Assembly: GCF_001457595.1 (NCBI RefSeq)
Contig: NZ_LN831039.1
Coordinates: 3,960,001-3,992,000 of the forward strand
Direction: 5' to 3'
Length of the DNA: 32,000 nt
Source of the DNA: Mycolicibacterium smegmatis
Lineage (GTDB): Bacteria > Actinomycetota > Actinomycetes > Mycobacteriales > Mycobacteriaceae
The notes beneath the pieces are model-generated. The model did not search any database and was not told the DNA's origin. It was given only the letters and a program-made list of their open reading frames with translations. Position numbers and translations under genes: made by a program. Of the stretch, positions 748 through 23,351 are shown piece by piece. Within the stretch, counting starts at the first letter, position 1; each line of letters begins with the position of its first letter.

Positions 748-818
748 AGCGAGTGACGGGACTCGAACCCGTGTAGACGGCTTTGCAGGCCGCTGCCTAG
801 CCACTCAGCCACACCCGC
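748..818 (-). tRNA. tRNA-Cys (anticodon GCA), 71 nt, CCA not encoded
   Basis: The reverse complement folds by hand into a cloverleaf. Acceptor stem GCGGGTG/CACTCGC has one G-U pair. Anticodon stem GCGGC/GCCGT carries loop CTGCAAA (U33, GCA, A37). T arm is ACGGG-TTCGAGT-CCCGT. Variable loop is 4 nt. The short D stem with a 13:22 mismatch is typical of tRNA-Cys. Confidence 0.9.
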
Positions 819-1000: not shown

Positions 1001-1032
1001 CTCGCTCACTCAGTCACTCACTCACTTACTCA
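1001..1032. repeat. Imperfect tetranucleotide tract, 8 units of CTCA-like (CTCG CTCA CTCA GTCA CTCA CTCA CTTA CTCA)
   Basis: Read directly from the sequence. On the minus strand it reads (TGAG)n, and its first TGA is the stop codon of the MFS gene. Confidence 0.7.
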
Positions 1033-4649: not shown

Positions 4650-4752
4650 GTTCCGATGATGTTCACCCACCGCGTAGGCTGACGCCATTCACGCGCCGAA
4701 ACACGAGACATTCGACCTGGTAGCCCGCACGAACACCGATCCGAAGGGAGTC

Positions 4753-5193
4753 GTGCGGGCCGTCGACGTCTACACCGTCGAGCCGTGGGGCCTCTACATG
4801 GCGCGTCCGACACCGGGACGTGCGCAGTTCCACTACCTGCAGTCCTGGCTGCTGCCCTCGCTCGGGCTGCGCGCGACGATCTTCCACTTCAATCCCGGTC
4901 ACGAGCGTGATCAGGACTTCTACCTCGACGTCGGCCACTACACGCCCGGCGAGACCAGGTGGCATTCCGAGGATCACTACCTCGACCTGGTGGTTCGCAC
5001 CGGCCGAGGCGTCGAGCTGTGCGATGTCGACGAGCTGTTGACGGCCGTTCGGGCGGGCCTGTTGCCGCAGGAGGCCGGCGAGCAGGCCATGCAGACCGCG
5101 GCCGCCGCGATCGACGGTCTGGCCCGCCACGACTACGACCTGGACCGCTGGCTGACGACAAAGGGCATGGCCCTGAGCTGGCGCGCAGCGTAA
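4753..5193 (+). CDS. DUF402-family protein (counterpart of M. tuberculosis Rv1632c)
   Basis: 146-aa ORF with a GTG start preceded by SD GAAGGGAG (4743-4750). The segment FYLDVGHY..EDHYLDLVVRTGRGVELCDVDELLTAVRAGLL resembles the DUF402 core. It is divergent from uvrB, as in M. tuberculosis. Confidence 0.75.
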   Translation: MRAVDVYTVEPWGLYMARPTPGRAQFHYLQSWLLPSLGLRATIFHFNPGHERDQDFYLDVGHYTPGETRWHSEDHYLDLVVRTGRGVELCDVDELLTAVRAGLLPQEAGEQAMQTAAAAIDGLARHDYDLDRWLTTKGMALSWRAA

Positions 5194-5204
5194 GGTCACT
5201 TTTC

Positions 5205-5786
5205 ATGAGCTCGACTAAGTACGCATGGGCGACGTCCGCCGTGCTTGCGGGGCTGCTCATCGGTGCGCAGATCGCCCCCGCCACGGCACTGGCCGATCCC
5301 CCGGTCGAACCCGCTGTCGACCCGGCGGCGCCACCCCAGGTGGAGGGACAGACGGGTCCGCTGCACAACGTCACCTACCGGGCCCGCATCGACGGGGTGT
5401 CGCGCAACGCGACCATCGCCTACAAGATCGACGACAGCAACGTCAACACCGCCGATCCGACGATGCTGCCGGGCCGCACGTTCGAGGCCACCGGTGTCGT
5501 GACCGACCCCCAACTCGCGGGGATGACCGTCCGTATCGACTGGCCGTACTCGGCCAACCTGCACTGCGAGATCCTTGTAGACGACCAGGTGATCGCGCAG
5601 GCCGACACGTTCGTCGCACCCCGGCTCACGCGGCCCAAGAACGATCCCGGCTACGGCAGCCTGCTGTGCGGCGCCAACCTCGCCGACGGCACCGGCAACG
5701 TCATCAACACCGGGCCCGTCGAGCCCGTCGAACCTGTGGCCCCGGCCGAGCCGCCGCCACCTCCCCCGGCCCAGAACGCGGCCTAG
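5205..5786 (+). CDS. Secreted protein of unknown function (Sec signal peptide, Pro-rich N- and C-terminal tails)
   Basis: The internal ATG at 5205 gives MSSTKYAWATSAVLAGLLIGAQIAPATALA/DPP, a classical signal peptide with an AxA cleavage site. The mature part has two Cys residues and ends PVEPVEPVAPAEPPPPPPAQNAA. The upstream 82 codons of the track ORF (4959-5204) are R/G-rich and overlap the DUF402 gene. Confidence 0.72.
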   Translation: MSSTKYAWATSAVLAGLLIGAQIAPATALADPPVEPAVDPAAPPQVEGQTGPLHNVTYRARIDGVSRNATIAYKIDDSNVNTADPTMLPGRTFEATGVVTDPQLAGMTVRIDWPYSANLHCEILVDDQVIAQADTFVAPRLTRPKNDPGYGSLLCGANLADGTGNVINTGPVEPVEPVAPAEPPPPPPAQNAA

Positions 5787-6721
5787 AACACCGACCAGCC
5801 GGCCAACCGCGCGAACTCCTCGATCGCGGCGACGCCACCTGCGGAGTTCCCGTCGTCGTCGAGCGGCGGGCTCCACACGCACACCGTGCCGTGACCGGGC
5901 ATCACGGCCAGCACGCCGCCGCCGATGCCACTCTTGGCGGGCAGCCCGATGCGGTACGCGATGTCGCCGGCCGCGCCGTACATCCCCGAGGTCAACAGCA
6001 CCGCGTTGACCCGGCGCACGCTGTCGTCGTCCAGGACGGTCCGCTCCCCGGTCCGGTCGGCGAGAAACAGTGCCGCGCGTGCGATCGTGCGCACCGACGC
6101 CGCGATCGCGCACTGTGCGAAGTACTGCGGCAGCACCCGGTCGATGTCGTTGACCAGCCTGCCGTGCTCGGCCAGGACGTGCGCGATGGCCGAATTGCGG
6201 TGGTCGGCTTCGCTTTCCGAGAGCGCCACCGCTGGGTCGGAGCGCACGGGAGCGTCCGGGTCACCCGCCTGCAGCACCTCGATCGTCGCGCCGACGGCAT
6301 CGCCGGCATGCGTCATGAGCCGGTCGGTGACGACGAGGGCGCCGGAGTTCACGAACGGATTGCGCGGCCGCCAGTGGTTGCGCTCCAGATCGGCCACCGA
6401 CCCGTACCCCGCGTCGGTGGGCACCCATCCCACGTCGGTCCAGACATCCGGTTCGTGCCGCAGCAGCGCGCACAGCGCGAACAGCTTGGACAGGCTCTGG
6501 ATGGAGAAGGCCGTGGACGCCTCGCCGATGCAGGCCTCGGCGCCGTCGACGGTGGCGACGGCCATCGCGAACCGCGTGGCGGGCACCGCGGCGAGTGCGG
6601 GTATCTGGCGGCTCACCATCCCGCGCAGCGCGGCGCGGCGGCCGCGCAACTCCGCCGCTCGCAGATACTCGTGCATCTGCTCGCCGGCCACCGGCGCAAA
6701 CGGCATACGCGTACCTGGCAA
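5783..6721 (-). CDS. glsA: Glutaminase (GlsA family, serine-dependent beta-lactamase fold)
   Basis: Contains the S-x-x-K motif (FSIQSLSKLFAL), plus NPFVNSGAL and LPAKSGIGGG, which are typical of glutaminase A. I prefer the TTG start at 6721 because SD GAGGAGG lies 5 nt upstream. Alternatives are TTG 6745 (longest ORF) and ATG 6706. Its stop overlaps the stop of the convergent secreted-protein gene (CTAG, 5783-5786). Confidence 0.85.
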   Translation of the reverse strand: MPGTRMPFAPVAGEQMHEYLRAAELRGRRAALRGMVSRQIPALAAVPATRFAMAVATVDGAEACIGEASTAFSIQSLSKLFALCALLRHEPDVWTDVGWVPTDAGYGSVADLERNHWRPRNPFVNSGALVVTDRLMTHAGDAVGATIEVLQAGDPDAPVRSDPAVALSESEADHRNSAIAHVLAEHGRLVNDIDRVLPQYFAQCAIAASVRTIARAALFLADRTGERTVLDDDSVRRVNAVLLTSGMYGAAGDIAYRIGLPAKSGIGGGVLAVMPGHGTVCVWSPPLDDDGNSAGGVAAIEEFARLAGWSVF

Positions 6722-6755
6722 GACAACCTCCTCGGGGAATGTCAAGAGTTTAGGC

Positions 6756-6899: not shown

Positions 6900-8441
6900 G
6901 TGGCGATGGCAGTTGAATTCGACCAGGGCACGGGGGCGGGAAGTACTGCGCCCCGTGACAATTCGGCCACCCTGAAACGTGGTGCGATCGGTCTTGCCGG
7001 CGTCGTGTTCATGGTGGTGGCCTTCTCGGCGCCGATAACGGCGATGACCGGCAACCTGCCGGTGGCCGTGGGCTTCGGCAACGGACTCGGTGCGCCGGGC
7101 GGATTCCTCATCGCAACCGTCGTCCTGACCATCTTCAGCATCGGCTTCGTGGCGCTGGCCCGCCACATCACCGCGGCCGGGGCGTTCTACACGTTCGTCT
7201 CACGCGCGTGGTCACGAATTCCCGGCCTGGCCGCAGGTGTCATGCCGGCCTTCACCTACATGACCATGGAAGCCGGACTCGTCGGCATCTTCTCGGCGTT
7301 CGCCGATCAGGCCTTCTCGATGCAGTTCGGCATCGATCTGCCGTGGGAGGTCTACGCGGTGATCGGCCTGGTCGCCATCGCGGCGCTGTCGCACTTCGAC
7401 ATCTCGGTGGCAGCCAAGGTGCTCGGCGTGGTGCTGGTCGCCGAGATCATCATGCTGTCGATGACCGCGATCGCGGGCCTGGTCCACCACCCCGACGGCA
7501 TGAGCTTCACATCGCTGAACCCGGTGACCGCGCTGAGCGTCAACAACGTCGCAGGCGGCGTGGTCGGCCTCGGCCTGCTTATGGCGTTCTGGTCGTGGGT
7601 CGGATTCGAGTCGACGGCCATCTACGGCGAGGAGTCGAAGAACCCCAAGCGCATCGTGCCGCTGGCGACGATGATCGCGGTGATCGGTATCGGCGTGTTC
7701 TACACCTTCATCTCGTGGGGCGTCGTCGTCGGCAACGGACCCGACAAGGCGGTCGAACTCGCTTCCGGGCCTGCACCTTTCGACCTGCTGTACGTCCCGA
7801 CCGCGGAGTACCTCGGACCATGGGCGGTGACGGTGTTCGAGTGGCTGGTGGTCGGCGGATCGTTCGCCTGCGCACTGGCGATCCACAACTCGGCCGCGCG
7901 GTACCTGTTCGCGTTCGGACGCGACGGCCTGCTGTGGCACCGCCTCGGTGAGGCCCACCCGAGGCACAGGTCGCCCTGGGTGGCATCGCTGGCCCAGAGC
8001 GCCTTCGCCGCAGTGCTTCTGGTGGTCTGCTCACTGACCAAGTCGGATCCCTACGCCGACCTGTTCGTGCTGGTGGCCATCCTGGCGACACTTCTGCTGC
8101 TGATCGTGCAGACGATGTGCTCGGTCGCGACCGTCGTGTACTTCCACGTCAAGAAGCAGCACCCCGAGACGGCATCATGGTGGCGAACCCTATTGGCCCC
8201 CATCATCGGAGGCGCGGGCATGCTCTACGTCATCTACCTGATGACCTCGAACATGCAGGCCGCGGCCGGCACCGCGTCGGACACCTTGTTCTTCAAGTTG
8301 ATCCCGTACGCGGTGGTCGGACTGACCCTCGGGTCCATGCTGCTGGCGCTGTACTGGCGCAAGGCCCGGCCCGACCTCTACGACCGGATCGGGAGCACGA
8401 TCTTCGACGATCGCGAACCCGTGCGCGAGCCGGCGAACTGA
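6900..8441 (+). CDS. APC-superfamily amino acid (or amine) permease
   Basis: 513-aa ORF with about 12 hydrophobic segments and an APC-like N-terminus (LKRGAIGLAGVVFMVVAFSAPITAMTGNL). The start is either GTG 6900 or ATG 6906; AGG at 6898-6900 favours 6906. Confidence 0.85.
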   Translation: MAMAVEFDQGTGAGSTAPRDNSATLKRGAIGLAGVVFMVVAFSAPITAMTGNLPVAVGFGNGLGAPGGFLIATVVLTIFSIGFVALARHITAAGAFYTFVSRAWSRIPGLAAGVMPAFTYMTMEAGLVGIFSAFADQAFSMQFGIDLPWEVYAVIGLVAIAALSHFDISVAAKVLGVVLVAEIIMLSMTAIAGLVHHPDGMSFTSLNPVTALSVNNVAGGVVGLGLLMAFWSWVGFESTAIYGEESKNPKRIVPLATMIAVIGIGVFYTFISWGVVVGNGPDKAVELASGPAPFDLLYVPTAEYLGPWAVTVFEWLVVGGSFACALAIHNSAARYLFAFGRDGLLWHRLGEAHPRHRSPWVASLAQSAFAAVLLVVCSLTKSDPYADLFVLVAILATLLLLIVQTMCSVATVVYFHVKKQHPETASWWRTLLAPIIGGAGMLYVIYLMTSNMQAAAGTASDTLFFKLIPYAVVGLTLGSMLLALYWRKARPDLYDRIGSTIFDDREPVREPAN

Positions 8442-8517: not shown

Positions 8518-9252
8518 TCAGCGCTTGAGCCAGGACTCGATGGTGTGGCGGGTGTCGTTGATGTGGGCTTCCATACGGGCCGCGGCCAACTCGGGCTCGC
8601 GGTTCTCGATGGCTTCGAGGATCGACTCGTGATAGTCGTTGGCGTTCGGTTCCAGCCTGCCGAAGATCGCGCCGACCGGCAGCCACATCCGCCGGCGCGC
8701 GTCGGCCACCGCGTCCAGCAGGCGATCGTTCTGGGCGGCCTGGGCGATGCCGAGGTGGAACGCCGAGTCCAGCGTCTGAAAGTCGGTGGTGTGCTTGGGC
8801 GACTGGTCGTCCAGCGCGGTCTTGAGCGCCTCGTCCATGCCGTTGAGCAGCTTGTGCAGGTCGTTGAGGTCCGCCGCGCGGCGGCGTTCGGCCGCAAGCC
8901 GTGTCGCGCCGGTCTCGACGACCACCCGGTAGTCGAAGGCGTCGCGGACGGCGCGTTTGTTGCGACGCATCTCGCGGCGCATCTCCACCGGATCGTATTC
9001 CGGTGCCTGCACCGTGAACCCGCCGCCGCGGCCCCGGCGCACCGCGATGAGACCTTCGCGTTCCAGCACGGCCACCGCGGTCCGCACGGTCGTCCTCGAG
9101 ACGTCGAGCATCTCCGAGAGCTCGCGCTCCGTCGGCAGCCTGTCGCCCGGACGGAACTGCCCGAGCTCCAAGGCCCGCCGCATCTGATCCACGACGAGTT
9201 CATGGGCCGGGATCTGCCGGACCGGGACCAAAGCTGGTTTCGCTGCTGTCAT
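8518..9252 (-). CDS. GntR-family transcriptional regulator, FadR subfamily (winged HTH plus FCD ligand domain)
   Basis: ATG at 9252 with SD GAAGGGGG 8 nt upstream. The N-terminal segment LPTERELSEMLDVSRTTVRTAVAVLEREGLIAVRRGRGGGFTV is a canonical GntR HTH. The helical C-terminal domain with conserved His/Asp (FHLGIA.., YHESILEAI) fits FCD. The 23 upstream codons of the track ORF are rejected. Confidence 0.88.
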   Translation of the reverse strand: MTAAKPALVPVRQIPAHELVVDQMRRALELGQFRPGDRLPTERELSEMLDVSRTTVRTAVAVLEREGLIAVRRGRGGGFTVQAPEYDPVEMRREMRRNKRAVRDAFDYRVVVETGATRLAAERRRAADLNDLHKLLNGMDEALKTALDDQSPKHTTDFQTLDSAFHLGIAQAAQNDRLLDAVADARRRMWLPVGAIFGRLEPNANDYHESILEAIENREPELAAARMEAHINDTRHTIESWLKR

Positions 9253-9343
9253 ATACCGGACCCCCTTCAAGTGTGCACAGGCTACCCCATATCCCCTGCT
9301 GAAGACGTATGCCTTGCCCAATAGACCAAAGAAAAAAATAAAA

Positions 9344-9365
9344 GTCCTAAAAACTTGACCTATAG
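9344..9365 (+). promoter_or_regulatory. Operator-like element copy B (GTCCTAAAAACTTGACCTATAG) overlapping a TTGACC -35-like hexamer
   Basis: 19 of 21 aligned positions (one 1-nt gap) are identical to copy C. The exact 9-mer GACCTATAG is shared (9357-9365 and 17732-17740). An extra half-site TAGACCAAA at 9322-9330 is identical to 6772-6780. Confidence 0.55.
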
Positions 9366-9425
9366 CCCTATTGCGTCGAAACTTGGTGGAGTTCAGCGCA
9401 GCTCACACTTCGAAGGGATCGTGGA

Positions 9426-10157
9426 TTGAGTAACAAGGTGATCGTGACGGGCGGGGCGGGCGTGATCGGTCAGGCGATCTGCCGTCGACTGCTGCAGAGC
9501 GACTACGTCCCGGTGGCGGCCGATCTCAAGCCCGCCGTGGACCAACTCGATCTGACGCAGGAGAACATGACCGGCGCGCTGAAGGTCGCGATGGACGTCT
9601 CGGACCGCGAGAGCGTGCAGAGCGCGGTGGACTCGGTGGTCGAGGACGGCGACACTCTTTACGGACTGGTCAATTGCGCTGGCATTCTTCGCGATTCGTT
9701 CCTCGGCGAGCTGGACGAGGCCAAGCTGGAGCTGATGTTCCAGGTGAACATCGCCGGCATGGCCCGGGTGACCGACGCGGTGGCACCGCATCTGCGTGAA
9801 GGGTCCGCGATCGTCAACATCGGCAGCCTCACCGGGCACTTCGGCCGTTTCCGCGGTGCCTCGGTGTACGGGGCGACCAAGGCCGGGATCGCCGCCTACA
9901 CCCGTTATCTGGCCGAGGAACTGGCCCCCCGCGGCATCCGCGTCAACAACATCGCCCCCGGCGTGATCCGGGCCCCGATGAGCCCGTCGATGGCCCGGGT
10001 GTCCGGCGGTGAGGAGATCAGCGCCAGTTACGCCATGCTCAAGCGCATCGGCGAACCCGAAGAGGTCGCCGAGGCCGTCGAATTCATGCTCTCACCGCGG
10101 GCGTCGTTCATCACCGCCCAGACCCTGCTCGTCGACGGCGGGGTGGTGGCCTGGTGA
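9426..10157 (+). CDS. Short-chain dehydrogenase/reductase (SDR 1)
   Basis: TTG start with SD GAAGGGA 7 nt upstream. Motifs: cofactor motif TGGAGVIG, NCAG, and catalytic S..YGATK. Confidence 0.85.
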   Translation: MSNKVIVTGGAGVIGQAICRRLLQSDYVPVAADLKPAVDQLDLTQENMTGALKVAMDVSDRESVQSAVDSVVEDGDTLYGLVNCAGILRDSFLGELDEAKLELMFQVNIAGMARVTDAVAPHLREGSAIVNIGSLTGHFGRFRGASVYGATKAGIAAYTRYLAEELAPRGIRVNNIAPGVIRAPMSPSMARVSGGEEISASYAMLKRIGEPEEVAEAVEFMLSPRASFITAQTLLVDGGVVAW

Positions 10158-11437
10158 CCACCGAGATCCACACCCCCACCGCCGCGACCGACGGGATCGA
10201 CGTCGAGGCGGCCAACGCCACCGCGTTCGCTCGCCTCGACGAGGCCGACCCGTGGGTGATCGACGTGCGCCCCGCCCGCGAGGTGCTCCCCGGCTACCGC
10301 GACAACGTGGTGCTGACCTCCGGGGCGCCGATGCCGTGGTCGGCCTACACCGGTGGGCAACGCGAAGCCCTCATCGGCGGCGCCCTGTTCGAAGGCCTGG
10401 CCGCCACCCGCGAGGAGGCCATCGCGAAGTTCGACGACGGCACCATCGAGGTCGGGGCGTGCCACGATTACGGCGCGGTCGGATCGCTCGCCGGGATCTA
10501 CACCGCCTCCATGCCGGTGTTCGTCGTGGAGAACCGCGCGCACGGCAACCTCGGGTTCTGCAACTTCTACGAAGGCAAAGAACCCCGCCGGCTGAACTAC
10601 GGCTGTTACGACGCCGGCGTCCACGAACGCCTCGAGCATGTCAACACCGTGCTGGCCCCGGTGGTCGGCGAGGCCATCCGCCGCCAGGGCGGCATCGCGC
10701 TCAAACCACTCATCGCCCGCGCCCTGCGGATGGGTGACGAGGTGCATTCCCGCAACGCCGCGGCCTCGATCCTGTTCAACCGCGAGATCCTGCCCGCGGT
10801 CCTCGACATGGTGGGCGAAGGTGTCGCCGGGGTGCGCGAGACCATGCTGCACCTGGCCGAGAACGACTACTTCTTCCTGCGTCTGTCCATGGCCGCGGCC
10901 AAGGCGTCGGCCGATGCCATGGTGACCCCGGGGTCGACGCTGGTGTCGGCGATGGCGTTCTCCTGTCGCGGGTTCGCCATCAAGCTCGCGGGCCTGGGCG
11001 ACCAGTGGTTCGAGGGGCCCCCGCCGATCCACCAGGGCAAGCTGTTCGCAGGCCACAGCGAAGACGAGATCACCTGGATGGGCGGGGAATCCCCGATCAC
11101 CGAGACCATCGGCCTCGGCGGGTTCGCCCAGGCGTGTGCCCTGTCGCTGCAGGAGTACCAGGGCGGACTGCCCGAGGTGATGATCGAGCGCAACCGCGAG
11201 ATGTACGCCATCACCCACGGCGAGAACAGCACCTACCGCATCCCGCTGTTCGCGTTCCGCGGCACCCCGACGGGCATCGACGCACGCAAGGTCCTCGACA
11301 CCGGCGTCCTGCCGGTCATGGACGTCGGCCTGGCCGGACGCGACGGCGGGCAGATCGGCGCGGGCGTCATCCGAGCGCCGCGTGAGTGCTTCGCCGACGC
11401 CATGGCCGAGCACACCCGTAGATTCGGACGACCATGA
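10154..11437 (+). CDS. DUF1116-family protein (YlbE/AllG-like), function unknown in this context
   Basis: 427-aa ORF. The GTG start overlaps the SDR1 stop (GTGA). Overall length and blocks such as GACHDYGAVGSLAGI, NFYEGKE, HSRNAAAS and GGESPITETIGLGGFA match my recollection of the YlbE family. This needs HMM confirmation. Confidence 0.65.
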   Translation: MTTEIHTPTAATDGIDVEAANATAFARLDEADPWVIDVRPAREVLPGYRDNVVLTSGAPMPWSAYTGGQREALIGGALFEGLAATREEAIAKFDDGTIEVGACHDYGAVGSLAGIYTASMPVFVVENRAHGNLGFCNFYEGKEPRRLNYGCYDAGVHERLEHVNTVLAPVVGEAIRRQGGIALKPLIARALRMGDEVHSRNAAASILFNREILPAVLDMVGEGVAGVRETMLHLAENDYFFLRLSMAAAKASADAMVTPGSTLVSAMAFSCRGFAIKLAGLGDQWFEGPPPIHQGKLFAGHSEDEITWMGGESPITETIGLGGFAQACALSLQEYQGGLPEVMIERNREMYAITHGENSTYRIPLFAFRGTPTGIDARKVLDTGVLPVMDVGLAGRDGGQIGAGVIRAPRECFADAMAEHTRRFGRP

Positions 11438-12228
11438 CCGTAGCCGCACAGACCGGACAAGCACCGACGAAGTCGCTCGCGTACACGTTCACCGGTGGCG
11501 ACGCCGTCGTCACCGGCGCAGCGTCGGGCATCGGTGCCGCCACGGCCGCGATGCTGATCTCGGCAGGTATCCGCACGATCCGCCTCGACATCCGCACACC
11601 CGAACCGGACCCTGGTTTCGGCGCAGACCTGCAGGTCTGCTGTGCCGCCGATGTCCGCGACCCGGATCTGCTCACCACGCTGCGTGGACAGGGCGCGCCC
11701 GTGGACACCGTGAGCTACGTGGTGAACTGCGCAGGCGTCATCGACGACACCGGATTCGCCGGTGTGAGTCGCGAGCACTGGCTGCGGTGCCTTGAGATCA
11801 ACCTGATGGGCGCCTACAACGTGCTCGACGCGTTCACCCCGGTGCTGCGGCAGAACCCACCGGCCGCGATCGTCAACGTCACCTCGATCGAGGCCGCCCG
11901 CGTCATCGCGCTGTCCAACCCCGATCCGACGCCGCAGTACGCCGCGTCCAAAGCCGGCCTGCGCATGCTGACCGAGACCAGCGCGCGGGCCCTGGCCGCC
12001 GACGGGATCCGCGTCAACAGCGTCGCGCCCGGATTCGTCGCGACGCCGATGGCCGCCGCGCACGGCAACACCGCGACCCTGCCGCCGTCGCTCGCACCGC
12101 GCGTGCCCGCGGGCCGATTCGCCCGGCCCGCCGAGATCGCCTGGGCCACCGCGTTCCTGCTGTGCGACCAGGCCACGTACATCACGGGTTCCGAACTGCG
12201 CGCCGACGGAGGATTTCAGCTGACATGA
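11434..12228 (+). CDS. Short-chain dehydrogenase/reductase (SDR 2)
   Basis: ATGA overlap with the DUF1116 gene. Motifs: TGAASGIG, NCAG, and catalytic S..YAASK. Confidence 0.85.
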   Translation: MTVAAQTGQAPTKSLAYTFTGGDAVVTGAASGIGAATAAMLISAGIRTIRLDIRTPEPDPGFGADLQVCCAADVRDPDLLTTLRGQGAPVDTVSYVVNCAGVIDDTGFAGVSREHWLRCLEINLMGAYNVLDAFTPVLRQNPPAAIVNVTSIEAARVIALSNPDPTPQYAASKAGLRMLTETSARALAADGIRVNSVAPGFVATPMAAAHGNTATLPPSLAPRVPAGRFARPAEIAWATAFLLCDQATYITGSELRADGGFQLT

Positions 12229-13295
12229 CGCGGACACCCGTCACCCGGAACCCGGTGGCCTACGAGCCGGCACTGGGCCGCAACGCGCGCACCGGCGACT
12301 GGCAGGAACTGGCGCGCGGCACGTTCCGCACCGCGATCGAACGCGTCGAGGCACAACAGTGGGAGGCCGCGGCGCAACTGGTCGAGGTGGCGGTGCTCGA
12401 AGCCGAGGAACTCAACGACGTCTACCAACGCTGGCCGGCCGCCACCATGCAGTGGATCCGCGACCACGATGTCGCTCAGGCCGACCTCGACCGTGCCCTC
12501 GCACGCCTCACCGCACTCATCGGAGACCAGGCCATGGCGGGGATCAACGCCGAGTGGCCCACGTTCACCGACGCGGTCGCGGTGGCCGCCCGCGCGTGCC
12601 GCGACCAGGACCCCGCGGCCGCCGGGCTGATCGAGACCGCCCGGCAGGCATGGCAGCAGATCCACGACCGTGCCGTCGACCGCGTCGCGGGCATCGTCGA
12701 CATCGCGGTCACGCTCGTCGGCGAACCAGCGCTCGGCGAGCTGTGGGATTTCCTCATGGCCGACTGGTACGAAATCCACGAGCGCCGTTACGCATTGGAC
12801 AACCAGCCGTGGAGCGAATCAGCACACCAGCTGATGATCGCGATCGTCGACGGTTTCCACGCACATCTGGCAGGCACCGGGCGCCAGGGCGACATCGAAC
12901 TCATCGAGGAGCCCGGGCGCACCGGATTCCGTTTCGCGCCATGCGGATCCGGTGGCCGGTCGCTCGACGCCCGCATCACCGACGGGGTACCCCGCTCCGG
13001 TGCACCGTTCGGTTTCGCCGTCACCACCGAACCACACGACTGGGCGTGGAACACCGTCGGCATCTGCTCGTACTGCGTGCACTGCTGCCAGCTCAACGAG
13101 GTCATGCCGATCGACCGGCTGGGCTACCCCACCCGCGTCATCGACCCGCCCACGTGGACACCGGATTCGCCGACCACATCCTGCACGTGGTGGGTGTACC
13201 ACGATCTCGCCGACATCCCCGACCACGTCTACCACCGCGTCGGGCGCGATCCCGCCCGCCGGCCGAGCCCGACCAGAAGGAGTGCCGATGGCTGA
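12225..13295 (+). CDS. Cys-rich protein of unknown function (356 aa)
   Basis: ATG at 12225 overlaps the SDR2 stop (ATGA). The N-terminal half is helical. The C-terminal half carries PCGSGG, CSYCVHCC and SCTWW cysteine motifs, which suggest a metal or Fe-S site. I recognise no family. The coding frame is supported by GC3 and by coupling on both sides. Confidence 0.7.
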   Translation: MTRTPVTRNPVAYEPALGRNARTGDWQELARGTFRTAIERVEAQQWEAAAQLVEVAVLEAEELNDVYQRWPAATMQWIRDHDVAQADLDRALARLTALIGDQAMAGINAEWPTFTDAVAVAARACRDQDPAAAGLIETARQAWQQIHDRAVDRVAGIVDIAVTLVGEPALGELWDFLMADWYEIHERRYALDNQPWSESAHQLMIAIVDGFHAHLAGTGRQGDIELIEEPGRTGFRFAPCGSGGRSLDARITDGVPRSGAPFGFAVTTEPHDWAWNTVGICSYCVHCCQLNEVMPIDRLGYPTRVIDPPTWTPDSPTTSCTWWVYHDLADIPDHVYHRVGRDPARRPSPTRRSADG

Positions 13296-14580
13296 CCACG
13301 TCGCGATGACGCAGCTCGAAGTCGCCGATTACGACCTCGGGCTGCGCGGCAAGCTGGTGCGCTCATCGAAGACGCACGGTGCGTCGGGCCTGGCGTTCTG
13401 CACCATCCTGTACGGCCTCTCGCTCATCGACGATGTCACCGACACGCCGTTCAGCAACGCCGCCAACGGCTATCCGGACGCCCAGCTGGTGCCCGACGAG
13501 ACCACCAGGGTCGCGCTGCCGTGGCGGCACGGCACCGACGCGGTGATCGCCGAACTCGTCGACGAGCAGGGCCGCCCGCTGGAGGTCTCGCCCCGCGCGG
13601 TGCTCGCCGGCCTCGCGGCCCGCTACGGCGAGCTGGGCCTGGCTCCCGTGCTGGGATACGAGTACGAGCTGTGGATCTTCCGCGACGGCGAGGGCACCTC
13701 ACCGCCGATCCTGGGTGGGAGACCCGCGCACGGCCGCACAGAGAACGCCTACAGCCTCACCCGGTGCGCCGAGATCAACGACATCGCAACAGAGTTCGTC
13801 AACCGGATGGACCAGATCGGCATCGAGGTCGAGATGTTCCACGCCGAACTGGGTCCCGGGTTCTTCGAGTTCACCCTCGCTCCCGAGACCGCGCTGCGGG
13901 CCACCGACAACGCCGCGCGGGCGCGGCAGTACCTGCGGGACCTGTGCGCCGAGCGCGGTCTGCACGCGAGCTTCATGGCCAAACCGTTCGCCGACAAGTC
14001 CGGTGCGGGCGGGCATGTGCACTCGAGTCTCACCCGTGACGGCAACAACGTGTTCTCCGACGGGGCGGGCGCGCTGTCGGCCGAGGGCAGCCGCTACCTG
14101 GCCGGACTGCTGGCCGGGATGGCCGACACGTCGCTCATGCTCAACCCACATGTCAACTCCTACAAGCGCATCGACCCTGAGATGTTCACACCGGCCCTGG
14201 CGAACTGGGGATATGACGACCGTGGCACCTCGGCCCGCGTGATCCTCCCCGATGCGAAGTCCGCCCGCGTCGAACACCGCCGCCCCGGCGCCGACGCCAG
14301 CCCCTACCTGGTCGCCGCGGCGCTGCTGGCCGCGGGTCTGCGCGGCCTGCAGGAGGAGTTGCCGCTGCCGGAACGGGACGCCGAACCGACCGAACTGCCA
14401 GGGGATCTGGCAGGCGCGCTGGCGCATTTCGAGAACTCGACCTGGCTACCCGATCTGCTCGGCAAGGCGTTCTGCACGTCGTACGCCGCGACACGGCGGG
14501 CCGAACTGCAGCGGTACGAGCAGTGGCTACGCACGACGATCACCGACTGGGAACTGCATCGACACCTGGAGCACCAATGA
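13288..14580 (+). CDS. Glutamine synthetase-like ATP-dependent ligase 1 (gamma-glutamyl-amine synthetase type)
   Basis: ATG at 13288 with SD GAAGGAG 5 nt upstream, and an 8-nt overlap with the preceding gene. GS catalytic motifs are present: YEYELWIF, FHAELGPGFFEF, GAGGHVHSS, NSYKRI, VEHRRPGADASPY. Confidence 0.85.
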   Translation: MADHVAMTQLEVADYDLGLRGKLVRSSKTHGASGLAFCTILYGLSLIDDVTDTPFSNAANGYPDAQLVPDETTRVALPWRHGTDAVIAELVDEQGRPLEVSPRAVLAGLAARYGELGLAPVLGYEYELWIFRDGEGTSPPILGGRPAHGRTENAYSLTRCAEINDIATEFVNRMDQIGIEVEMFHAELGPGFFEFTLAPETALRATDNAARARQYLRDLCAERGLHASFMAKPFADKSGAGGHVHSSLTRDGNNVFSDGAGALSAEGSRYLAGLLAGMADTSLMLNPHVNSYKRIDPEMFTPALANWGYDDRGTSARVILPDAKSARVEHRRPGADASPYLVAAALLAAGLRGLQEELPLPERDAEPTELPGDLAGALAHFENSTWLPDLLGKAFCTSYAATRRAELQRYEQWLRTTITDWELHRHLEHQ

Positions 14581-15956
14581 GCAGCACATCTGCACTTCTC
14601 GACCTCGACCAGTTCGAAAAGCTCGCCGCGGCAGGCGAGATCACCACGGTGATCTGCGCGGCGCCCGATCCGTACGGCCGCCTGGTGGGCAAGCGCCTGA
14701 CCATATCGGCCTTCCGGACGCTGGGCCTCGACGGCGGCGGCGTGAACGCCAGCAGCTTCATCTTCGCGGTCGACCTCGAGATGAACCCACTCGACCTCCC
14801 GGTGTCCAACGCCGCCAACGGCTGGGTGGACATCCGTCTGGTCCCGGATCTCTCGACGCTGCGGCGCGTGCCGTGGGAACCCACGGCGGCACTGGTGATC
14901 TGCGACGCCTACCACATGGATTCCGACGAGCCGCTGGCCGTCGCTCCGAGAACCATTCTGCGCCAACAGATCGACCGGGCCGCGCAGCAGGGTCTGCGGT
15001 TCAAGTTCGCATCCGAACTCGAGTTCTACCTGTCGTGCACCCCGCCGCGTCAGGCGTGGGACCTGGGCTATCAGAACCTCAAGATGATGTCGGACTACCG
15101 GTCGGACTACCAGATGATCCAGGCCGCGCGCGACGACTGGTTCATCGAGCGGATCCGCAACCAGATGCCCGAGTTCGGCGTACCCATCGAATCGTCGAAA
15201 CCCGAATGGGGACTGGGCCAGCAGGAGGTCACACTCGACTACTGCGACACCTTGGAGATGGCCGACCGCCACGTACTGTTCAAGTACGGCGTCAAGCAGT
15301 TGACCCACAGCGCCGATCTGACCGTGACGTTCATGGCGAAACCCAAGATCGACGAGGTCGGCTCGTCGTGCCACCTGCACGTCAGCATGTGGTCGACCGA
15401 CGACGACCAACCGCTGTGCTGGTGTCCCGAGCGCCGCGGCATGTCGGACCGCTTCGGCGCGTTCGTGGCCGGGCAGTTGCGTCACGCCATCGACATGAGC
15501 CTGATGTACGCCCCGACGGTCAACTCCTACAAGCGCTTCAAGCCCGATCAGTTCGCCGGGACCGCGATCGCGCTGGGGATGGACAACCGGTCGTGCGCGT
15601 TCCGGCTCGTGGGCAACGGACCGTCGTTCCGGGTGGAGAACCGCATCCCCGGTGCGGACGTGAATCCTTACTACGCGTACGCGGCGACCATTGCGGCCGG
15701 CCTCGACGGCGTCGAGGCGAACCTGCCCGCACCCGACATCTTCGACGGCAACGCCTGGACCCGCGAAGGTGTGGCGACCGTGCCGACATCGTTGCACCGC
15801 TCGCTGGACCTGTTCGCCGAGAGCAAGATGGCCCGAACCGCGTTCGGCGACGAGGTGTTCGACCATCTGCTGTCCTCGGCGCAGGGCGAGTTGGAGGCGT
15901 TCGACTCGCACACCGTGACCGACTGGGAGTCGCGCCGCTACTACGAACGCGTCTGA
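14577..15956 (+). CDS. Glutamine synthetase-like ATP-dependent ligase 2 (gamma-glutamyl-amine synthetase type)
   Basis: ATGA overlap with ligase 1. GS catalytic motifs are present: SELEFYL, KPEWGLGQQEV, GSSCHLHVS, NSYKRF, FRVENRIPGADVNPY. Confidence 0.85.
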   Translation: MSSTSALLDLDQFEKLAAAGEITTVICAAPDPYGRLVGKRLTISAFRTLGLDGGGVNASSFIFAVDLEMNPLDLPVSNAANGWVDIRLVPDLSTLRRVPWEPTAALVICDAYHMDSDEPLAVAPRTILRQQIDRAAQQGLRFKFASELEFYLSCTPPRQAWDLGYQNLKMMSDYRSDYQMIQAARDDWFIERIRNQMPEFGVPIESSKPEWGLGQQEVTLDYCDTLEMADRHVLFKYGVKQLTHSADLTVTFMAKPKIDEVGSSCHLHVSMWSTDDDQPLCWCPERRGMSDRFGAFVAGQLRHAIDMSLMYAPTVNSYKRFKPDQFAGTAIALGMDNRSCAFRLVGNGPSFRVENRIPGADVNPYYAYAATIAAGLDGVEANLPAPDIFDGNAWTREGVATVPTSLHRSLDLFAESKMARTAFGDEVFDHLLSSAQGELEAFDSHTVTDWESRRYYERV

Positions 15957-15999: not shown

Positions 16000-16944
16000 A
16001 TGCCGATCGATCCCATTGCCCAGAAGATGCTCGACGACGCCAAGGCCTCCGGGCGCCCCAACGCGCACCTGCTGCCGGTGCCCACCGCGCGGGAGAACTT
16101 CGAGAACACGTTCGCGGCGCTGCAGAAGCCCGATGTGCACCGCGTCACCGACGTCGCCATCGAGACCCGCGACGGTGCGGTCATCCCGGGCCGGCTCTAC
16201 GTTCCCGCCGAGGGCGACGACCTGCCGTTGACGGTCTACTACCACGGTGGTGGCTGGCTGCTCGGCAGCGTCGACTCGCACGATGCGGCGACCCGACTGC
16301 TGGCCAAGGCCTCCGGCAGTGCGGTGCTTTCGGTGGGCTACCGCCTGGCCCCGGAGTCCCGCTTCCCCACCGCCGTCAACGACGCGATCGATGCCGTGGA
16401 ATGGGCGCGCGCGTTCGGCGCGACGCTCGGAGTCGACACCTCGCGCCTCGCGGTCGCGGGTGACAGCGCCGGTGGCAACCTGGCCGCCGCCGTCGCGCTG
16501 CACTACCGCGACGCCGGGGAACCGGTGATCCGCCACCAACTGCTGGTCTACCCGGTGACCACGACCGACCTGACCAAGGGCATGGACCCGGAGTACGACG
16601 GCGTGATGCTCGAACGTGATGAGCTGCAATGGCATCAGGACAACTACCTGCCGGGGCCCGATGCGGCGTCGGATCCCCGGGTCAACGTTCTCGGCGCGGA
16701 TCTGCACGGCCTGCCCGAGGCCACCGTCATCCTCGCCGAATGTGACCCGATTCGCCCCCAGGGCGAGCTCTACCTGCAGGCGCTGAAGGATGCGGGTGTG
16801 CCGGTGGAGAGCCACCTGACACCCGGTCAGGTGCACGGGTTCTTCGGCCTGGACGAGATCTTCCCGGCCGCCACCGCAGCCATGACATTCGCCGGGCAGC
16901 GCCTGGCGTCCGCGCTGGCCGTCGCCGGGCAGTCGACCCGATGA
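16000..16944 (+). CDS. Alpha/beta hydrolase fold-3 esterase/lipase (hormone-sensitive-lipase family)
   Basis: SD AAGGAG lies 6 nt upstream of the ATG. Motifs: oxyanion motif HGGGW, nucleophile elbow GDSAGG, and distal D (ECDP) and H (VHGF). Confidence 0.88.
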   Translation: MPIDPIAQKMLDDAKASGRPNAHLLPVPTARENFENTFAALQKPDVHRVTDVAIETRDGAVIPGRLYVPAEGDDLPLTVYYHGGGWLLGSVDSHDAATRLLAKASGSAVLSVGYRLAPESRFPTAVNDAIDAVEWARAFGATLGVDTSRLAVAGDSAGGNLAAAVALHYRDAGEPVIRHQLLVYPVTTTDLTKGMDPEYDGVMLERDELQWHQDNYLPGPDAASDPRVNVLGADLHGLPEATVILAECDPIRPQGELYLQALKDAGVPVESHLTPGQVHGFFGLDEIFPAATAAMTFAGQRLASALAVAGQSTR

Positions 16945-17669
16945 GCCGCACCGCGCTGGTCACCGGCGCCAACGGCGGCATCGGCTCGGCCACCGTCGCC
17001 CGGCTGGTCAAAAACGGCGTCGAGGTGATCGCGACCGATCTCGGCGAGCGCTCGGACACTGTGCCCGCCGACGCCGATTACGTGCCGTTCGATCTGCGCA
17101 GCGGTGATCCGCACGAATTGTTCGAACGGCTGGACGGCCGCGGACTGGACTACCTGGTCAACGCGGCAGGCGTGGCCCTGTTCGACCGCGACGGGTCGAT
17201 GCTCGACATCGACGAATCCATCTGGGACGTCACGCTCGGGGTGAACCTGCACGGGCTGCGCAAGGTCACCGCAGCTGCGGTGGAACACCTGCGCAGGGGC
17301 AGCGGCAAGAGCATCGTCAACGTGGCGAGCACGGCCGGTTTGCGGGGTATGGACTCCCCTCTGGACGCCTATCAGGTGAGCAAGGCCGCCGTGGTGTCGT
17401 TGACACGCGCGCTGGCCCTGCAGCTGGCGCCGGAAGGCATCCGCGCGAACACCGTGTGTCCCGGTGCGATCCTCACCCCCATGATCGACCACCTCTACGT
17501 CGAGAACCCGGCACGCAGGGTCGACATGGAGAACCGCACGCCGATGCGCCGCCTGGGTATGCCCGACGAGATCGCAAGTGCCATCGCATTTCTGCTGTCC
17601 GACGAGGCGTCGTTCGTCACGGCGACCGACCTGGTGGTCGACGGCGGCTGGACCGCCCAGATCAAGTAG
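16941..17669 (+). CDS. Short-chain dehydrogenase/reductase (SDR 3)
   Basis: ATGA overlap with the esterase gene. Motifs: TGANGGIG, NAAG, and catalytic S..YQVSK. Confidence 0.85.
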   Translation: MSRTALVTGANGGIGSATVARLVKNGVEVIATDLGERSDTVPADADYVPFDLRSGDPHELFERLDGRGLDYLVNAAGVALFDRDGSMLDIDESIWDVTLGVNLHGLRKVTAAAVEHLRRGSGKSIVNVASTAGLRGMDSPLDAYQVSKAAVVSLTRALALQLAPEGIRANTVCPGAILTPMIDHLYVENPARRVDMENRTPMRRLGMPDEIASAIAFLLSDEASFVTATDLVVDGGWTAQIK

Positions 17670-17762: not shown

Positions 17763-19220
17763 ATGAGCGGGTCACCACGGGTCGCAATCATCGGATCAGG
17801 ATTCAGCGGTATTGCCGCGGCGATTGCGCTGCGCAACAAGGGCATCGAAGACTTCGTCATCTTCGAGAAGGCGCCCGCACTGGGCGGGACCTGGTGGTAC
17901 AACCGTTATCCGGGCGCTGAGGTGGACCTGGAGTCCCACATCTACTCGTTCTCGTTCGAGCGCTACGACTGGACGCGCACCCACGCCGGCTGGGCAGAAC
18001 TGCAGGAGTACCTGAACCACGTCGCGGACAAATGGGACCTGCCGCGCCGGATCCGGTTCAACGAGAAGGTCGTCGACGTCCGCTGGTCGGATGCCGACCA
18101 GACCTACACCATCAGGACCGAATCCGGTGACGATCACGGGCAGTTCACCGCGGTCATCAGCGCCGTCGGCTTCCTCAACATCCCGCTGATCCCGCCGTTC
18201 GCGCGCGAGCAGAACGACTTCGAGGGCGCGATCTGCCACACGTCACGGTGGATCGACGGACTGGACATGACCGGCAAGAAGATCGGCGTGCTGGGCACCG
18301 GATCATCGGCCGTGCAGGTGGTCACCGAGGCCGAACGCGTCGGCGCCGAGGTCAAGATCTTCCAGATCGAGCCCAACTGGATCCTGCCGAAGGACAGTCG
18401 CGACTTCAGCCCGCTGGAACGGCGCCTCAACCGTCTGGCACCGGTCTACGCATACCGGCGGCTCAAGCTGTACCTCGGCTACGACCTGCGCCAGGTCCGC
18501 TCCAGCCACGCCAGGAGTGACGGCCGCACCAACCAGCGCAAGCACAGGGCCGCGGTGGCGTACCTGCAGCGCGAACTCGGCGACCGGCCGGACCTGCTCG
18601 AGCTCGCCACACCGTCGTTCCCGTACGAGGGCAGACGGACCGTCGTCAGCGACACCTACTACCAGGCGCTGCGCAGCCCCAAGGTGACGCTGGTCCCCCA
18701 CGCCGTCAAGGGACTGTCCCGCACCGGCGCCATCGACGCCAACGGCGACGAACACGAACTCGACATCATCGTGCTGGCAACTGGTTTCGACGCCGCGAAC
18801 TACCTGGGCAACTACCAGGTGCACGGCCGAAACGGAGTGGAACTGCACGACGCGTGGCAGGGCGAACCCGAGGCATTCCTGGGCATGATGGTGCCGAAGT
18901 TCCCGAACTTCTTCATCATGTACGGGCCCAACACCAACTCGATCCCGCTGGTGTCGTTCTACGAGGCGCAGGCAGCCTTCGCCGCGAGCCTGATCGCGCG
19001 GGCCACCAAGACCCGCGCGGGCAGCATCGAGGTCCGCCGGTCGGCGTTCGTCCTGTACAACGACTGGATCCAGGCCGCGCTCGCGAAAACCGTGTGGGCG
19101 CAGGTGCAGAACTACTTCCAGGCCGGCACGGGCCGCGTCGTGTCGCAGTGGCCGTTCGGCGCGACGCCCTACATCCTGGCGACAAAGCTGCTGCGCCGCA
19201 TCGCCGTACGGCTGTCCTGA
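17763..19220 (+). CDS. Type I Baeyer-Villiger (flavin-containing) monooxygenase, EthA-like
   Basis: SD AGGAG lies 5 nt upstream. Motifs: FAD motif GSGFSG, GGTWWYNRYPG, BVMO fingerprint FEGAICHTSRW (FxGxxxHxxxW), and NADPH motif GTGSSA. Confidence 0.85.
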   Translation: MSGSPRVAIIGSGFSGIAAAIALRNKGIEDFVIFEKAPALGGTWWYNRYPGAEVDLESHIYSFSFERYDWTRTHAGWAELQEYLNHVADKWDLPRRIRFNEKVVDVRWSDADQTYTIRTESGDDHGQFTAVISAVGFLNIPLIPPFAREQNDFEGAICHTSRWIDGLDMTGKKIGVLGTGSSAVQVVTEAERVGAEVKIFQIEPNWILPKDSRDFSPLERRLNRLAPVYAYRRLKLYLGYDLRQVRSSHARSDGRTNQRKHRAAVAYLQRELGDRPDLLELATPSFPYEGRRTVVSDTYYQALRSPKVTLVPHAVKGLSRTGAIDANGDEHELDIIVLATGFDAANYLGNYQVHGRNGVELHDAWQGEPEAFLGMMVPKFPNFFIMYGPNTNSIPLVSFYEAQAAFAASLIARATKTRAGSIEVRRSAFVLYNDWIQAALAKTVWAQVQNYFQAGTGRVVSQWPFGATPYILATKLLRRIAVRLS

Positions 19221-21918: not shown

Positions 21919-22123
21919 GTGGTGGGTTGCTCCGGACAGGTGTAATCGTAGGGACAGTTCTTTTGTTGATCGTGCTCATTTCGGGCGGCGAATCTCTCGG
22001 CGTCGAAATGATGTATGCCGTGCTGGTCGTACACACGGGTACTCCCAGAGCCTACTCGACCGAGCACACGCAGGACAAACTCGCCCACCCCGGGTGGGTT
22101 CTCCCGCTCGTCAGAGACCCTTC

Positions 22124-22705
22124 TCACACCGGGCCTGTGCGTGCGAACGCACAGATCGCACGTGCGACGCGATCCAGATATTCCGACGTCACAGGCCGAA
22201 ACAGTGCGATCAGACGCCAGAAGACCAGCGCGCCCATCGCGTCGACCAGCAGTTCGGAGTCGGCACCGGGGGCAAGCTCTCCGCGAGTGGCGGCGCGATC
22301 GAGAATATCGCGCGCACGCGCCCGGCGCGGCGTACCGACGGTGTCCATCAGTGCCTCGGCCAGCACCGGGTTGCGCTGGGCCTCGGCCAGCAGATCCGGG
22401 TACAGCCGGCGCATGCGTTCGTCGCCGATCCACCGGTTGACGTCCGCCAGGAGCGCCAGGACGTCACCGTACAACGATCCGGTGTCCGGCGCCGCGCCCT
22501 CGGGCAGCGCCAGGGTGCGCATCGCGGCCGCGGTCATCTCGATCTTCGACGGCCAGCGACGGTAGATCGCACCCTTGCCCGCACCGGCTCGTTTGGCCAC
22601 GCCGTCGACGGTCATGGACCCGAACCCGTGTTCGGCCAGTTCCGAGAGCGCGGCATCGAGGATCGCCGCGGTGACCCTGGCCTCTTGCGGCCGTCCGGCC
22701 GTCAC
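22124..22705 (-). CDS. TetR-family transcriptional regulator
   Basis: GTG at 22705 gives VTAGRPQEARVTAAILDAALSELAEHGFGSMTVDGVAKRAGAGKGAIYRRWPSK, a canonical TetR HTH. The 304-aa track ORF extends upstream into R/S/T-rich non-protein-like sequence that other genes occupy in another frame. Confidence 0.85.
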   Translation of the reverse strand: MTAGRPQEARVTAAILDAALSELAEHGFGSMTVDGVAKRAGAGKGAIYRRWPSKIEMTAAAMRTLALPEGAAPDTGSLYGDVLALLADVNRWIGDERMRRLYPDLLAEAQRNPVLAEALMDTVGTPRRARARDILDRAATRGELAPGADSELLVDAMGALVFWRLIALFRPVTSEYLDRVARAICAFARTGPV

Positions 22706-23318: not shown

Positions 23319-23335
23319 GGCCGCCTCCGAATTCC

Positions 23336-23351
23336 GGAACGAGTTGGTTCC
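23336..23351. promoter_or_regulatory. Small dyad GGAAC-N6-GTTCC in the SnoaL-operon/prsW divergent region (candidate TetR operator)
   Basis: The inverted repeat was read directly from the sequence. It sits just upstream of the SnoaL-like gene SD. The arms are short, so support is weak. Confidence 0.25.

Follow-up and report, generated by a model that had tools for sequence, protein, structure and literature searches.

We analyzed a 32,000-nucleotide (nt) stretch of the Mycolicibacterium smegmatis genome (contig NZ_LN831039.1, positions 3,960,001 to 3,992,000 of the forward strand; hereafter "the window"), in which a gene for a DUF1116 protein lies among genes for short-chain dehydrogenases/reductases (SDRs) and close to an open reading frame (ORF) encoding a Cys-rich protein of no annotated family. 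These genes belong to a 12-gene catabolic island (approximately MSMEG_3820-3831), which is controlled by a GntR-family regulator and located between uvrB and coaE/rpsA/polA (the GC content of the window is 63-72%). The island contains two fixed modules: the DUF1116 protein and the SDR encoded upstream of it (SDR1-DUF1116), and the Cys-rich protein with a ligase related to glutamine synthetase (GS), termed here GS1. The original prediction dealt with the DUF1116, SDR and Cys-rich genes; the wider context is that of an island with gamma-glutamyl ligases, a Baeyer-Villiger monooxygenase (BVMO) and an esterase. The new elements are one unannotated protein family without a fold match in the PDB and the known AllG family (DUF1116) in a new partnership, and the functions proposed below are drawn from genomic context.

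Organization of the island

The forward-strand operon begins with SDR1 (9426..10157; PF13561, E 2e-53; YGATK catalytic motif), followed by the DUF1116/AllG homolog (MSMEG_3824, 427 aa, 10154..11437; PF06545, E 8.8e-74), SDR2 (11434..12228; PF13561, E 5.6e-45; TGAASGIG and YAASK motifs), the Cys-rich protein (MSMEG_3826, 356 aa, 12225..13295) and two PuuA-type GS-like ligases in tandem, GS1 (MSMEG_3827, 13288..14580; PF00120, E 1.5e-77) and GS2 (MSMEG_3828, 14577..15956; PF00120, E 3.1e-83). Further downstream on the same strand are a hormone-sensitive-lipase-type esterase (16000..16944; PF07859 (Abhydrolase_3), E 4.9e-67; HGG and GDSAG motifs), SDR3 (16941..17669; PF13561, E 3.8e-52; TGANGGIG and YQVSK motifs) and a type I Baeyer-Villiger-like flavin monooxygenase (17763..19220; Pfam FMO-like and Pyr_redox_3). 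Divergent from this operon is the GntR/FadR-type (FCD) regulator MSMEG_3822 (267 aa, 8518..9321, reverse strand; PF00392 and PF07729), preceded by an APC-family amino acid/amine permease (6900..8441, forward strand; PF13520 and PF00324) with weak, below-cut-off NCBIfam matches to amino-acid, ethanolamine and polyamine transporters. A glutaminase of the GlsA type (MSMEG_3820 or a nearby tag, 5783..6745, reverse strand; PF04960, E 1.4e-84; TIGR03814, 283 bits, over the cut-off) is divergent from the permease, and this synteny is kept in many related loci. The tags MSMEG_3824 and MSMEG_3822 were matched to listed genes, while MSMEG_3826 was assigned by position and the tags of GS1, GS2 and the glutaminase are likewise putative. 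On these matches, the window belongs to M. smegmatis mc2155 or a strain nearly identical to it.

Most of the operon junctions are overlaps of stop and start codons. The DUF1116 gene is translationally coupled to SDR genes on both sides, as originally predicted: the SDR1 stop and the DUF1116 start share a 4-nt GTGA overlap (10154-10157), and the DUF1116 stop and the SDR2 start a 4-nt ATGA overlap (11434-11437). SDR2 and the Cys-rich gene are likewise joined by ATGA (12225-12228), the Cys-rich gene and GS1 by ATGGCTGA (13288-13295), and GS1 and GS2 by ATGA (14577-14580). The longest ORF of GS2 begins at GTG 14523 and overlaps GS1 by 58 nt, and an in-frame ATG is available at 14577; since the ATGA overlap formed by the latter with the GS1 stop resembles the other junctions of the operon, ATG 14577 is the likely start, giving a protein of 459 aa.

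In the published record, MSMEG_3827 and MSMEG_3828 are named together among additional putative GS genes of M. smegmatis (PMC7816997). A transcriptome supplement describes MSMEG_3824 as hypothetical, 427 aa, on the forward strand at 3893053-3894336 (1284 nt, the size of the DUF1116 ORF). In the transcriptome set for cholesterol and androstenedione, MSMEG_3824 appears at noise level only, with values identical to those of unrelated genes, and the nitrogen-starvation set holds no entry for the island genes.

An "operator" of MSMEG_3822, TTGTTACTCAA, has been published (PMC2018728), and the GntR gene of the window agrees with MSMEG_3822 in its 267-aa length and in subfamily. We found TTGTTACTCAA at 9427-9437, and we reject it as the true operator: its reverse complement is just SDR1's TTG start with the first codons that follow, and it is not kept as such in orthologous GntR-SDR1 intergenic regions. 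Many of these regions (window region 9322-9440) have instead a palindrome of the GTGAT-N4-ATCAC or GTGAT-N5-GTCAC type, and many also have a GA(A/G)ACT box upstream of the ribosome-binding site. A riboswitch, sought as a clue to the ligand, was not found.

The SDR1-DUF1116 module

The ORF at 10154-11437, originally predicted to encode DUF1116, scores 248.1 bits with PF06545 (AllG) against a cut-off of 27, over profile positions 1-215 of 215. Its product exhibits 37% identity to E. coli YlbE over residues 4-409, and it matches the one solved member of the family (PDB 3clq) with E 1.7e-66 for the single sequence and 3e-79 for the profile (residues 14-419). It is a full-length, true member of the AllG/DUF1116 family. 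The AlphaFold2 (AF2) model of this protein is of low confidence (pLDDT 41), having been calculated from a shallow alignment of sequences of 84-91% identity.

AllG is one of the three components of AllFGH, which catalyzes the reversible reaction of oxalurate and Pi to carbamoyl phosphate and oxamate. In E. coli these components are encoded by fdrA, ylbE and ylbF, together with the carbamate kinase AllK. The identity of YlbE with AllG, put forward in the original prediction as background, is now firmer: AllFGH has been purified and shown to be an oxamic transcarbamylase, all three genes being needed for activity (PMC11326118). The window protein resembles this system in being a full-length AllG/YlbE homolog, and differs from it in everything that surrounds the gene. 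AllF, AllH and AllK are absent from the window and the related loci, the constant partner is instead a coupled SDR, and the neighbors are gamma-glutamyl ligases, a BVMO and an esterase rather than allantoin or purine genes.

The absence of the usual partners had been proposed for the window, and it holds much more widely. A tblastn search with E. coli FdrA, YlbF and the carbamate kinase YbcF gave no match at E <= 1e-3 in the window and 52 related genome loci of about 20 kb each (about 10 kb on either side), while YlbE matches the DUF1116 gene in 48 of these 52 loci; the other four (L002, L008, L022 and L029) are cut near the Cys-rich gene or rearranged. In Pfam scans, none of the window's remaining long ORFs matched the FdrA, YlbF or carbamate-kinase families, and no FdrA or YlbF is annotated across about 25 kb of the island and its flanks on the Rhodococcus plasmid NC_023144.1. 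In PLSDB the counts of DUF1116 and FdrA run parallel in enterobacteria. In the named tallies, Rhodococcus, Paenarthrobacter and Azospirillum turn up for DUF1116 only, a result that is suggestive and no more. Thus, the protein is in the AllG family but, in the loci covered, lacks the partners, kinase and context that define the AllFGH system.

The DUF1116 gene is the most conserved gene of the island (median identity 87.6%), with SDR1 next (85%, median across 40 loci), while the Cys-rich gene (70.9%) and GS1 (69.9%) are among the lowest. An SDR is encoded immediately upstream of DUF1116 in 50 of 52 cases, and in the remaining two the DUF1116 match is only partial and SDR1 is still the nearest upstream gene. 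SDR1-DUF1116 is therefore a fixed module and the most conserved pair of the island. This bears on the idea, contained in the original prediction, that the SDRs and the Cys-rich protein might be novel partners of DUF1116: it stands for the upstream SDR, but not for the Cys-rich protein, which has a GS-like neighbor in 46 of 47 genome loci.

The Cys-rich family and the distribution of the two modules

The coordinates first reported (10154-13295) hold exactly, and the 356-aa ORF carries the motifs PCGSGG (residues 239-244), CSYCVHCC (281-288) and SCTWW (319-323), with the spacing C281-x2-C284-x2-C287. We found at least 400 homologs, "hypothetical" wherever they are named, and an exhaustive search (E <= 1e-3) yielded 463 clusters at 50% identity, so that the ORF represents more than chance. 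A profile search extends the family to Pseudomonas cavernicola, Microbaculum and Rhodospirillaceae, at about 40% identity. The earlier failure to place the protein in any family was borne out at all levels of comparison. The single sequence has no match in Pfam or NCBIfam, no Pfam family recurs among 28 diverse members searched at E <= 5, and searches of PDB sequences (phmmer and profile) returned only noise from designed helical bundles. The AF2 model (pLDDT 93.9, pTM 0.90) predicts a long N-terminal helical bundle (approximately residues 26-214) and a small C-terminal Cys/His domain, for which Foldseek detected no structural relative in the PDB (best E 0.65, TM <0.2). We also rejected the possibility that the protein is a hidden AllF or AllH (hhalign probability 0.2% against YlbF and FdrA). 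The Cys-rich protein represents an unannotated family, whose fold, as predicted, has no match in the PDB.

Analysis of the conserved residues reveals a pattern that only partly follows the CxxCxxCC cluster, in which a metal or Fe-S center had been suspected. The six C-terminal cysteines are all invariant among 48 close homologs, and so are H147, H185, H212, H214, H271 and H286. In a set of 28 sequences reaching down to 23-24% identity, C240, G241, Y283, H286, C320, G300, P302 and G340 remain invariant, and C284, C287, H214, D148, E167 and R220 are conserved in at least 90%. C281, however, is absent from 4 of these 28 distant members and C288 is variable. Hence conservation of the cysteines holds for C240 and C320 throughout and nearly so for C284 and C287, but does not extend to C281 and C288 in every member. 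The protein thus offers four or more conserved Cys/His residues as candidate ligands. In the AF2 model C284 and C287 lie at the start of a helix, C240 in a loop after a hairpin and C320 on a strand. The spacing C281-x2-C284-x2-C287 and the combination of a CxxC at a helix N-terminus with a loop cysteine and a strand cysteine resemble Cys4 zinc and [4Fe-4S] sites (ferredoxin-type CxxCxxC, treble-clef); on the other hand, the protein matches no ferredoxin or zinc-finger family in sequence or fold, C281 and C288 are dispensable in some members, and an invariant H286 is located inside the motif. To judge from the conserved residues, C240, C284, H286, C287, C320, H214, D148 and E167 could plausibly form an active or metal site. 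More speculatively, the protein may be a metalloenzyme or a metal-binding subunit, acting directly before or after GS1.

Longer or fused homologs contain no informative extra domain, except for a possible read-through into a GS fragment in P0197 (688 aa), a database protein in which a Cys-rich part is continued by a Gln-synt_C fragment. The two-gene module may be truly fused there, or the protein is an artefact of frameshift or read-through.

The same gene set was found in at least 40 loci, from Mycolicibacterium, Rhodococcus, Gordonia, Pseudonocardia, Nocardioides, Paeniglutamicibacter, Nanopelagicales, Longivirga and Gaiellales. In 46 of 47 genome loci a GS-like gene directly adjoins the Cys-rich gene, and within 5 kb of the latter are the esterase (45/47), an SDR (45/47) and DUF1116 (44/47). 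Among the loci with long flanks the BVMO and the esterase are each present in 43 of 45, the permease in 38 and a PuuD-like hydrolase in 27. Of 35 metagenome loci with flanks, 16 have a GS-like gene directly beside the Cys-rich gene and 20 have one within 5 kb; 23 have an SDR within this distance, and none has DUF1116 there. The Cys-rich family thus pairs most often with a PuuA-type ligase and SDRs.

Co-occurrence of DUF1116 and the Cys-rich protein as a unit, suggested as a check of the original prediction, did not bear it out. The SDR1-DUF1116 and Cys-rich-GS1 modules lie in different operons in L035 and L050-L052, and the Cys-rich gene occurs without DUF1116 in Pseudomonas and most metagenome loci. 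Since the Cys-rich family is widespread without DUF1116, the two proteins are not obligate partners but island-mates only.

Variants of the island exhibit shuffling, reduction and replacement. One metagenome locus (L096) possesses the full gene set in a shuffled order, while in two others (L029 and L030) only the GS-like and Cys-rich genes remain, beside an IS110 element. The alphaproteobacterium Microbaculum has the full set, with the SDR-AllG pair, two GS-like genes, BVMO, esterase, glutaminase and Peptidase_C26, and in alphaproteobacterial versions the permease is replaced by a binding-protein-dependent ABC transporter (Peripla_BP_6 type, of the import kind). P. cavernicola has esterase, GntR, SDRs, BVMO, SDR, Cys-rich and GS genes and lacks DUF1116. 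Outside Actinomycetota we also found one locus with a creatininase-family gene in the place of DUF1116 and a minimal locus composed of RidA-like, zinc-dependent alcohol dehydrogenase, Cys-rich and GS genes. In some distant lineages two Cys-rich paralogs, in tandem or close to each other, were observed (L057, 8824-11062; L110, 10001-13042; L122, 6911-15097), and one locus contains tandem Cys-rich paralogs and an Amidohydro_2 gene in a sugar-type cluster. In a distant actinomycete metagenome-assembled genome (L050) a luciferase-like monooxygenase and an Amidohydro_3 protein (2825-3934 and 12920-14518) are found where the window has the BVMO and the glutaminase, which may be a non-orthologous replacement.

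The full-length Cys-rich gene is also present on three large Rhodococcus plasmids, with only a weak partial match on a fourth, that of R. jostii RHA1 (NC_008271.1). On plasmid NC_023144.1 of R. pyridinivorans SB3094 (L141, 224427-249416) the whole island is located between IS21 and IS1380, with acs (acetate-CoA ligase) at its end. The RefSeq names are, in order, gamma-glutamyl-GABA hydrolase family, glsA, APC permease, FabG, FCD regulator, SDR, DUF1116, SDR, hypothetical, GS family, GS family, alpha/beta hydrolase, SDR, FAD oxidoreductase and acs. This version looks like a mobile catabolic island.

Elsewhere in the window, a gap of about 1.1 kb separates uvrB from the glutaminase gene (4689-5782); its sole long forward ORF (4959-5786, 275 aa) has no Pfam or NCBIfam match and may not be a gene. 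Two other forward ORFs without a Pfam match (23205-25088 and 21755-22978) overlap a TetR-family gene (22124-23038, reverse strand) and a ThrE-family gene (24615-25856, reverse strand), and because of this overlap they are probably shadow ORFs of high-GC DNA. A tRNA gene (748-818, reverse strand; Rfam, 59.8 bits) is situated directly downstream of an MFS transporter gene (1030-2415, reverse strand).

A proposed pathway and its alternatives

The enzymes around the two modules point to the type of chemistry. In an alignment with E. coli GlnA and PuuA, GS1 and GS2 keep E130, E132, E213, E221, H270, E358, R322, R340, R345 and R360, i.e. all metal, ATP and glutamate residues of GS, while the ammonium-site residues D50, S53 and E327 are absent, as in PuuA. 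With the catalytic core kept and the ammonium site missing, both resemble gamma-glutamyl-amine ligases rather than glutamine synthetases. YxxxK and a glycine-rich nucleotide-binding motif are kept in all three SDRs. The monooxygenase has the BVMO fingerprint FEGAICHTSRW at residue 153 (FxGxxxHxxxW) and the FAD motif GSGFSG at residue 11 (GxGxxG), and together with the adjoining alpha/beta-hydrolase, which carries a GxSxG nucleophile, it makes up a BVMO-esterase module.

Two known types of pathway are brought to mind. Ketones are degraded by a BVMO and an esterase, e.g. AcmA/AcmB of Gordonia, and BVMOs of the EthA type are also known. The island resembles such routes in having an SDR dehydrogenase, a BVMO and an alpha/beta-hydrolase in one operon, with acs in Rhodococcus, and differs in that this module is embedded among ligases and a glutaminase, which handle nitrogen. 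The Puu route and the actinobacterial GlnA2, GlnA3 and GlnA4 routes gamma-glutamylate polyamines and ethanolamine (PMC5403932, PMC8998196, PMC6529630). Shared with them are PuuA-type ligases with an intact core and no ammonium site, a permease, a local repressor and, in most relatives of the island, a PuuD-type hydrolase. In contrast to the Puu route, the island has neither a PuuB-type oxidase nor a PuuC-type aldehyde dehydrogenase, its ligases are in tandem, and it adds three SDRs, a BVMO, an esterase, a glutaminase, DUF1116 and the Cys-rich protein.

From this context we infer a gamma-glutamyl-masking catabolic pathway for a hydroxylated amine, a proposal to which we give slightly less than an even chance; the substrate, more speculatively, might be a small amino alcohol or a hydroxylated polyamine. 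The permease would import the hydroxylated amine, the two PuuA-type ligases would attach glutamate to its amino group(s) in an ATP-dependent reaction, and the SDRs, presumed to be of the NAD type, would convert a secondary alcohol into a ketone. The BVMO would then insert oxygen, turning the ketone into an ester, the GDSAG esterase would hydrolyze the ester, and the glutaminase (with the PuuD-type hydrolase in most relatives) would recover glutamate and ammonia. We counted the glutaminase of the window and the PuuD-like hydrolase, present also in Microbaculum and on the Rhodococcus plasmid, toward the gamma-glutamyl logic. The presence of acs at the end of the Rhodococcus version fits a release of acetate, but it is lineage-specific. 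DUF1116 would act as half of an obligate SDR1-DUF1116 module and not within oxamate carbamoyltransferase. AllFGH cleaves the N-acyl C-N bond of oxalurate, and by analogy one may speculate that an oxidized gamma-glutamyl intermediate has an amide- or imide-type C-N bond on which the module works. The chemistry of either orphan protein, taken singly, is speculative, and any one proposal for it is far less probable than the pathway type.

Several observations weigh against this proposal. The two GS-like proteins score 177 and 196 bits with NF045547 (gamma-glutamylputrescine synthetase), against a cut-off of 650, and the island genes include no amine oxidase or aldehyde dehydrogenase Pfam family, both of which the classical Puu route needs. 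The PuuD-like gene (Peptidase_C26) is absent from the M. smegmatis window, which has the glutaminase instead, and acs had to be rejected as a general marker of acetate release, as it follows the island in Rhodococcus only. In Mycobacterium sp. DL99 (L003, 8800-9216) the island lacks SDR1-DUF1116 between the GntR gene and SDR2, by natural deletion or because the pair was never acquired, and this module may accordingly be peripheral. Distant Cys-rich members adjoin SDR or Amidohydro_2 genes with no GS-like gene detected, so the chemistry of this family need not involve a ligase. The absence of FdrA and YlbF covers the window and the related loci, not the rest of the M. smegmatis chromosome. Finally, we found no literature linking the island genes to any substrate; publications on them amount to gene lists, a GntR census and a shotgun-electron-microscopy map of MSMEG_3828.

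In a more elaborate form of the proposal, gamma-glutamyl masking followed by Baeyer-Villiger cleavage would be combined with catalytic roles for both orphan proteins. The AllG-like protein, free of AllF and AllH, would be the catalytic half of SDR1-DUF1116 and cleave an imide- or carbinolamide-type N-acyl C-N bond made by SDR1, and the Cys-rich protein would be a Cys4/His metalloenzyme of new fold, working with the PuuA-type ligase. We hold this hybrid to be somewhat unlikely in its entirety.

The orphan proteins might instead have no catalytic role, the Cys-rich protein being an accessory of GS1 (a subunit for specificity, assembly or regulation, or a redox sensor with Zn or Fe-S) and DUF1116 a scaffold of SDR1. 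The stop/start overlaps and the constant adjacency of the genes suggest stoichiometric complexes, a large helical-bundle N-terminal domain is typical of scaffolds, and in P0197 a Cys-rich part and a Gln-synt_C fragment are found in one chain. However, P0197 is possibly a frameshift artefact, the polar residues D148, E167, H214, R220, Y283 and H286 are conserved down to 23-24% identity, and the Cys-rich members without a GS neighbor (tandem paralogs, or members beside SDR and amidohydrolase genes) argue for a chemistry of their own. On balance, we regard an accessory role as distinctly unlikely.

Two other explanations concern the island as a whole, and we find both improbable. The substrate could be a non-amine compound (a ketone, ester or amide), e.g. 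a methyl ketone, with the GS-like proteins only re-assimilating released ammonia or serving in regulation; for a classical ketone pathway a BVMO, an esterase and SDRs alone suffice, the Rhodococcus island is followed by acs, and the esterase scores, although below the cut-offs, with models of chloramphenicol hydrolase and LipP1. Against this, the residues with which true GS binds ammonium are missing from both GS-like proteins, and two such ligases and a glutaminase or PuuD-like hydrolase accompany the island across phyla. Alternatively, the island could be biosynthetic and make a gamma-glutamylated small molecule or signal, as biosynthetic clusters, too, contain ATP-dependent ligases and tailoring oxidoreductases. 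Yet a permease, a glutaminase or PuuD-like hydrolase, a GntR/FCD repressor, a BVMO-esterase pair and carriage on a plasmid between insertion sequences are the usual make-up of a catabolic island, there is no non-ribosomal peptide synthetase, polyketide synthase or exporter in it, and the ABC transporter of the alphaproteobacterial versions is of the import kind.

That DUF1116 is simply the AllG subunit of an oxamate-carbamoyltransferase-like enzyme, with FdrA/YlbF-like partners elsewhere in the genome and an incidental place in the operon, is highly improbable: the full-length homology to YlbE and the strong match to 3clq would agree with it, but no partner or carbamate kinase gene lies within about 10 kb in any of the 52 loci or is annotated around the Rhodococcus plasmid island, an SDR gene is always translationally coupled to DUF1116, whose conservation is the highest in the island, and the DUF1116-only tallies in PLSDB, suggestive rather than proof, point the same way.

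AllG was assigned to an enzyme only in 2024, and a lineage in which it is welded to an SDR and free of AllF and AllH is a natural experiment on its function; if true, the hybrid pathway would also indicate the part that AllG plays inside oxamic transcarbamylase. The Cys-rich family, which spans Actinomycetota and Pseudomonadota and comprises at least 463 clusters at 50% identity, is found in catabolic operons of a genetically tractable model organism. Solving the island would give functions to MSMEG_3827 and MSMEG_3828, which belong to the large set of orphan GS-like genes in M. smegmatis, and would add a pathway for a nitrogen or carbon source to the biology of soil mycobacteria, Rhodococcus, Gordonia and Nocardioides.

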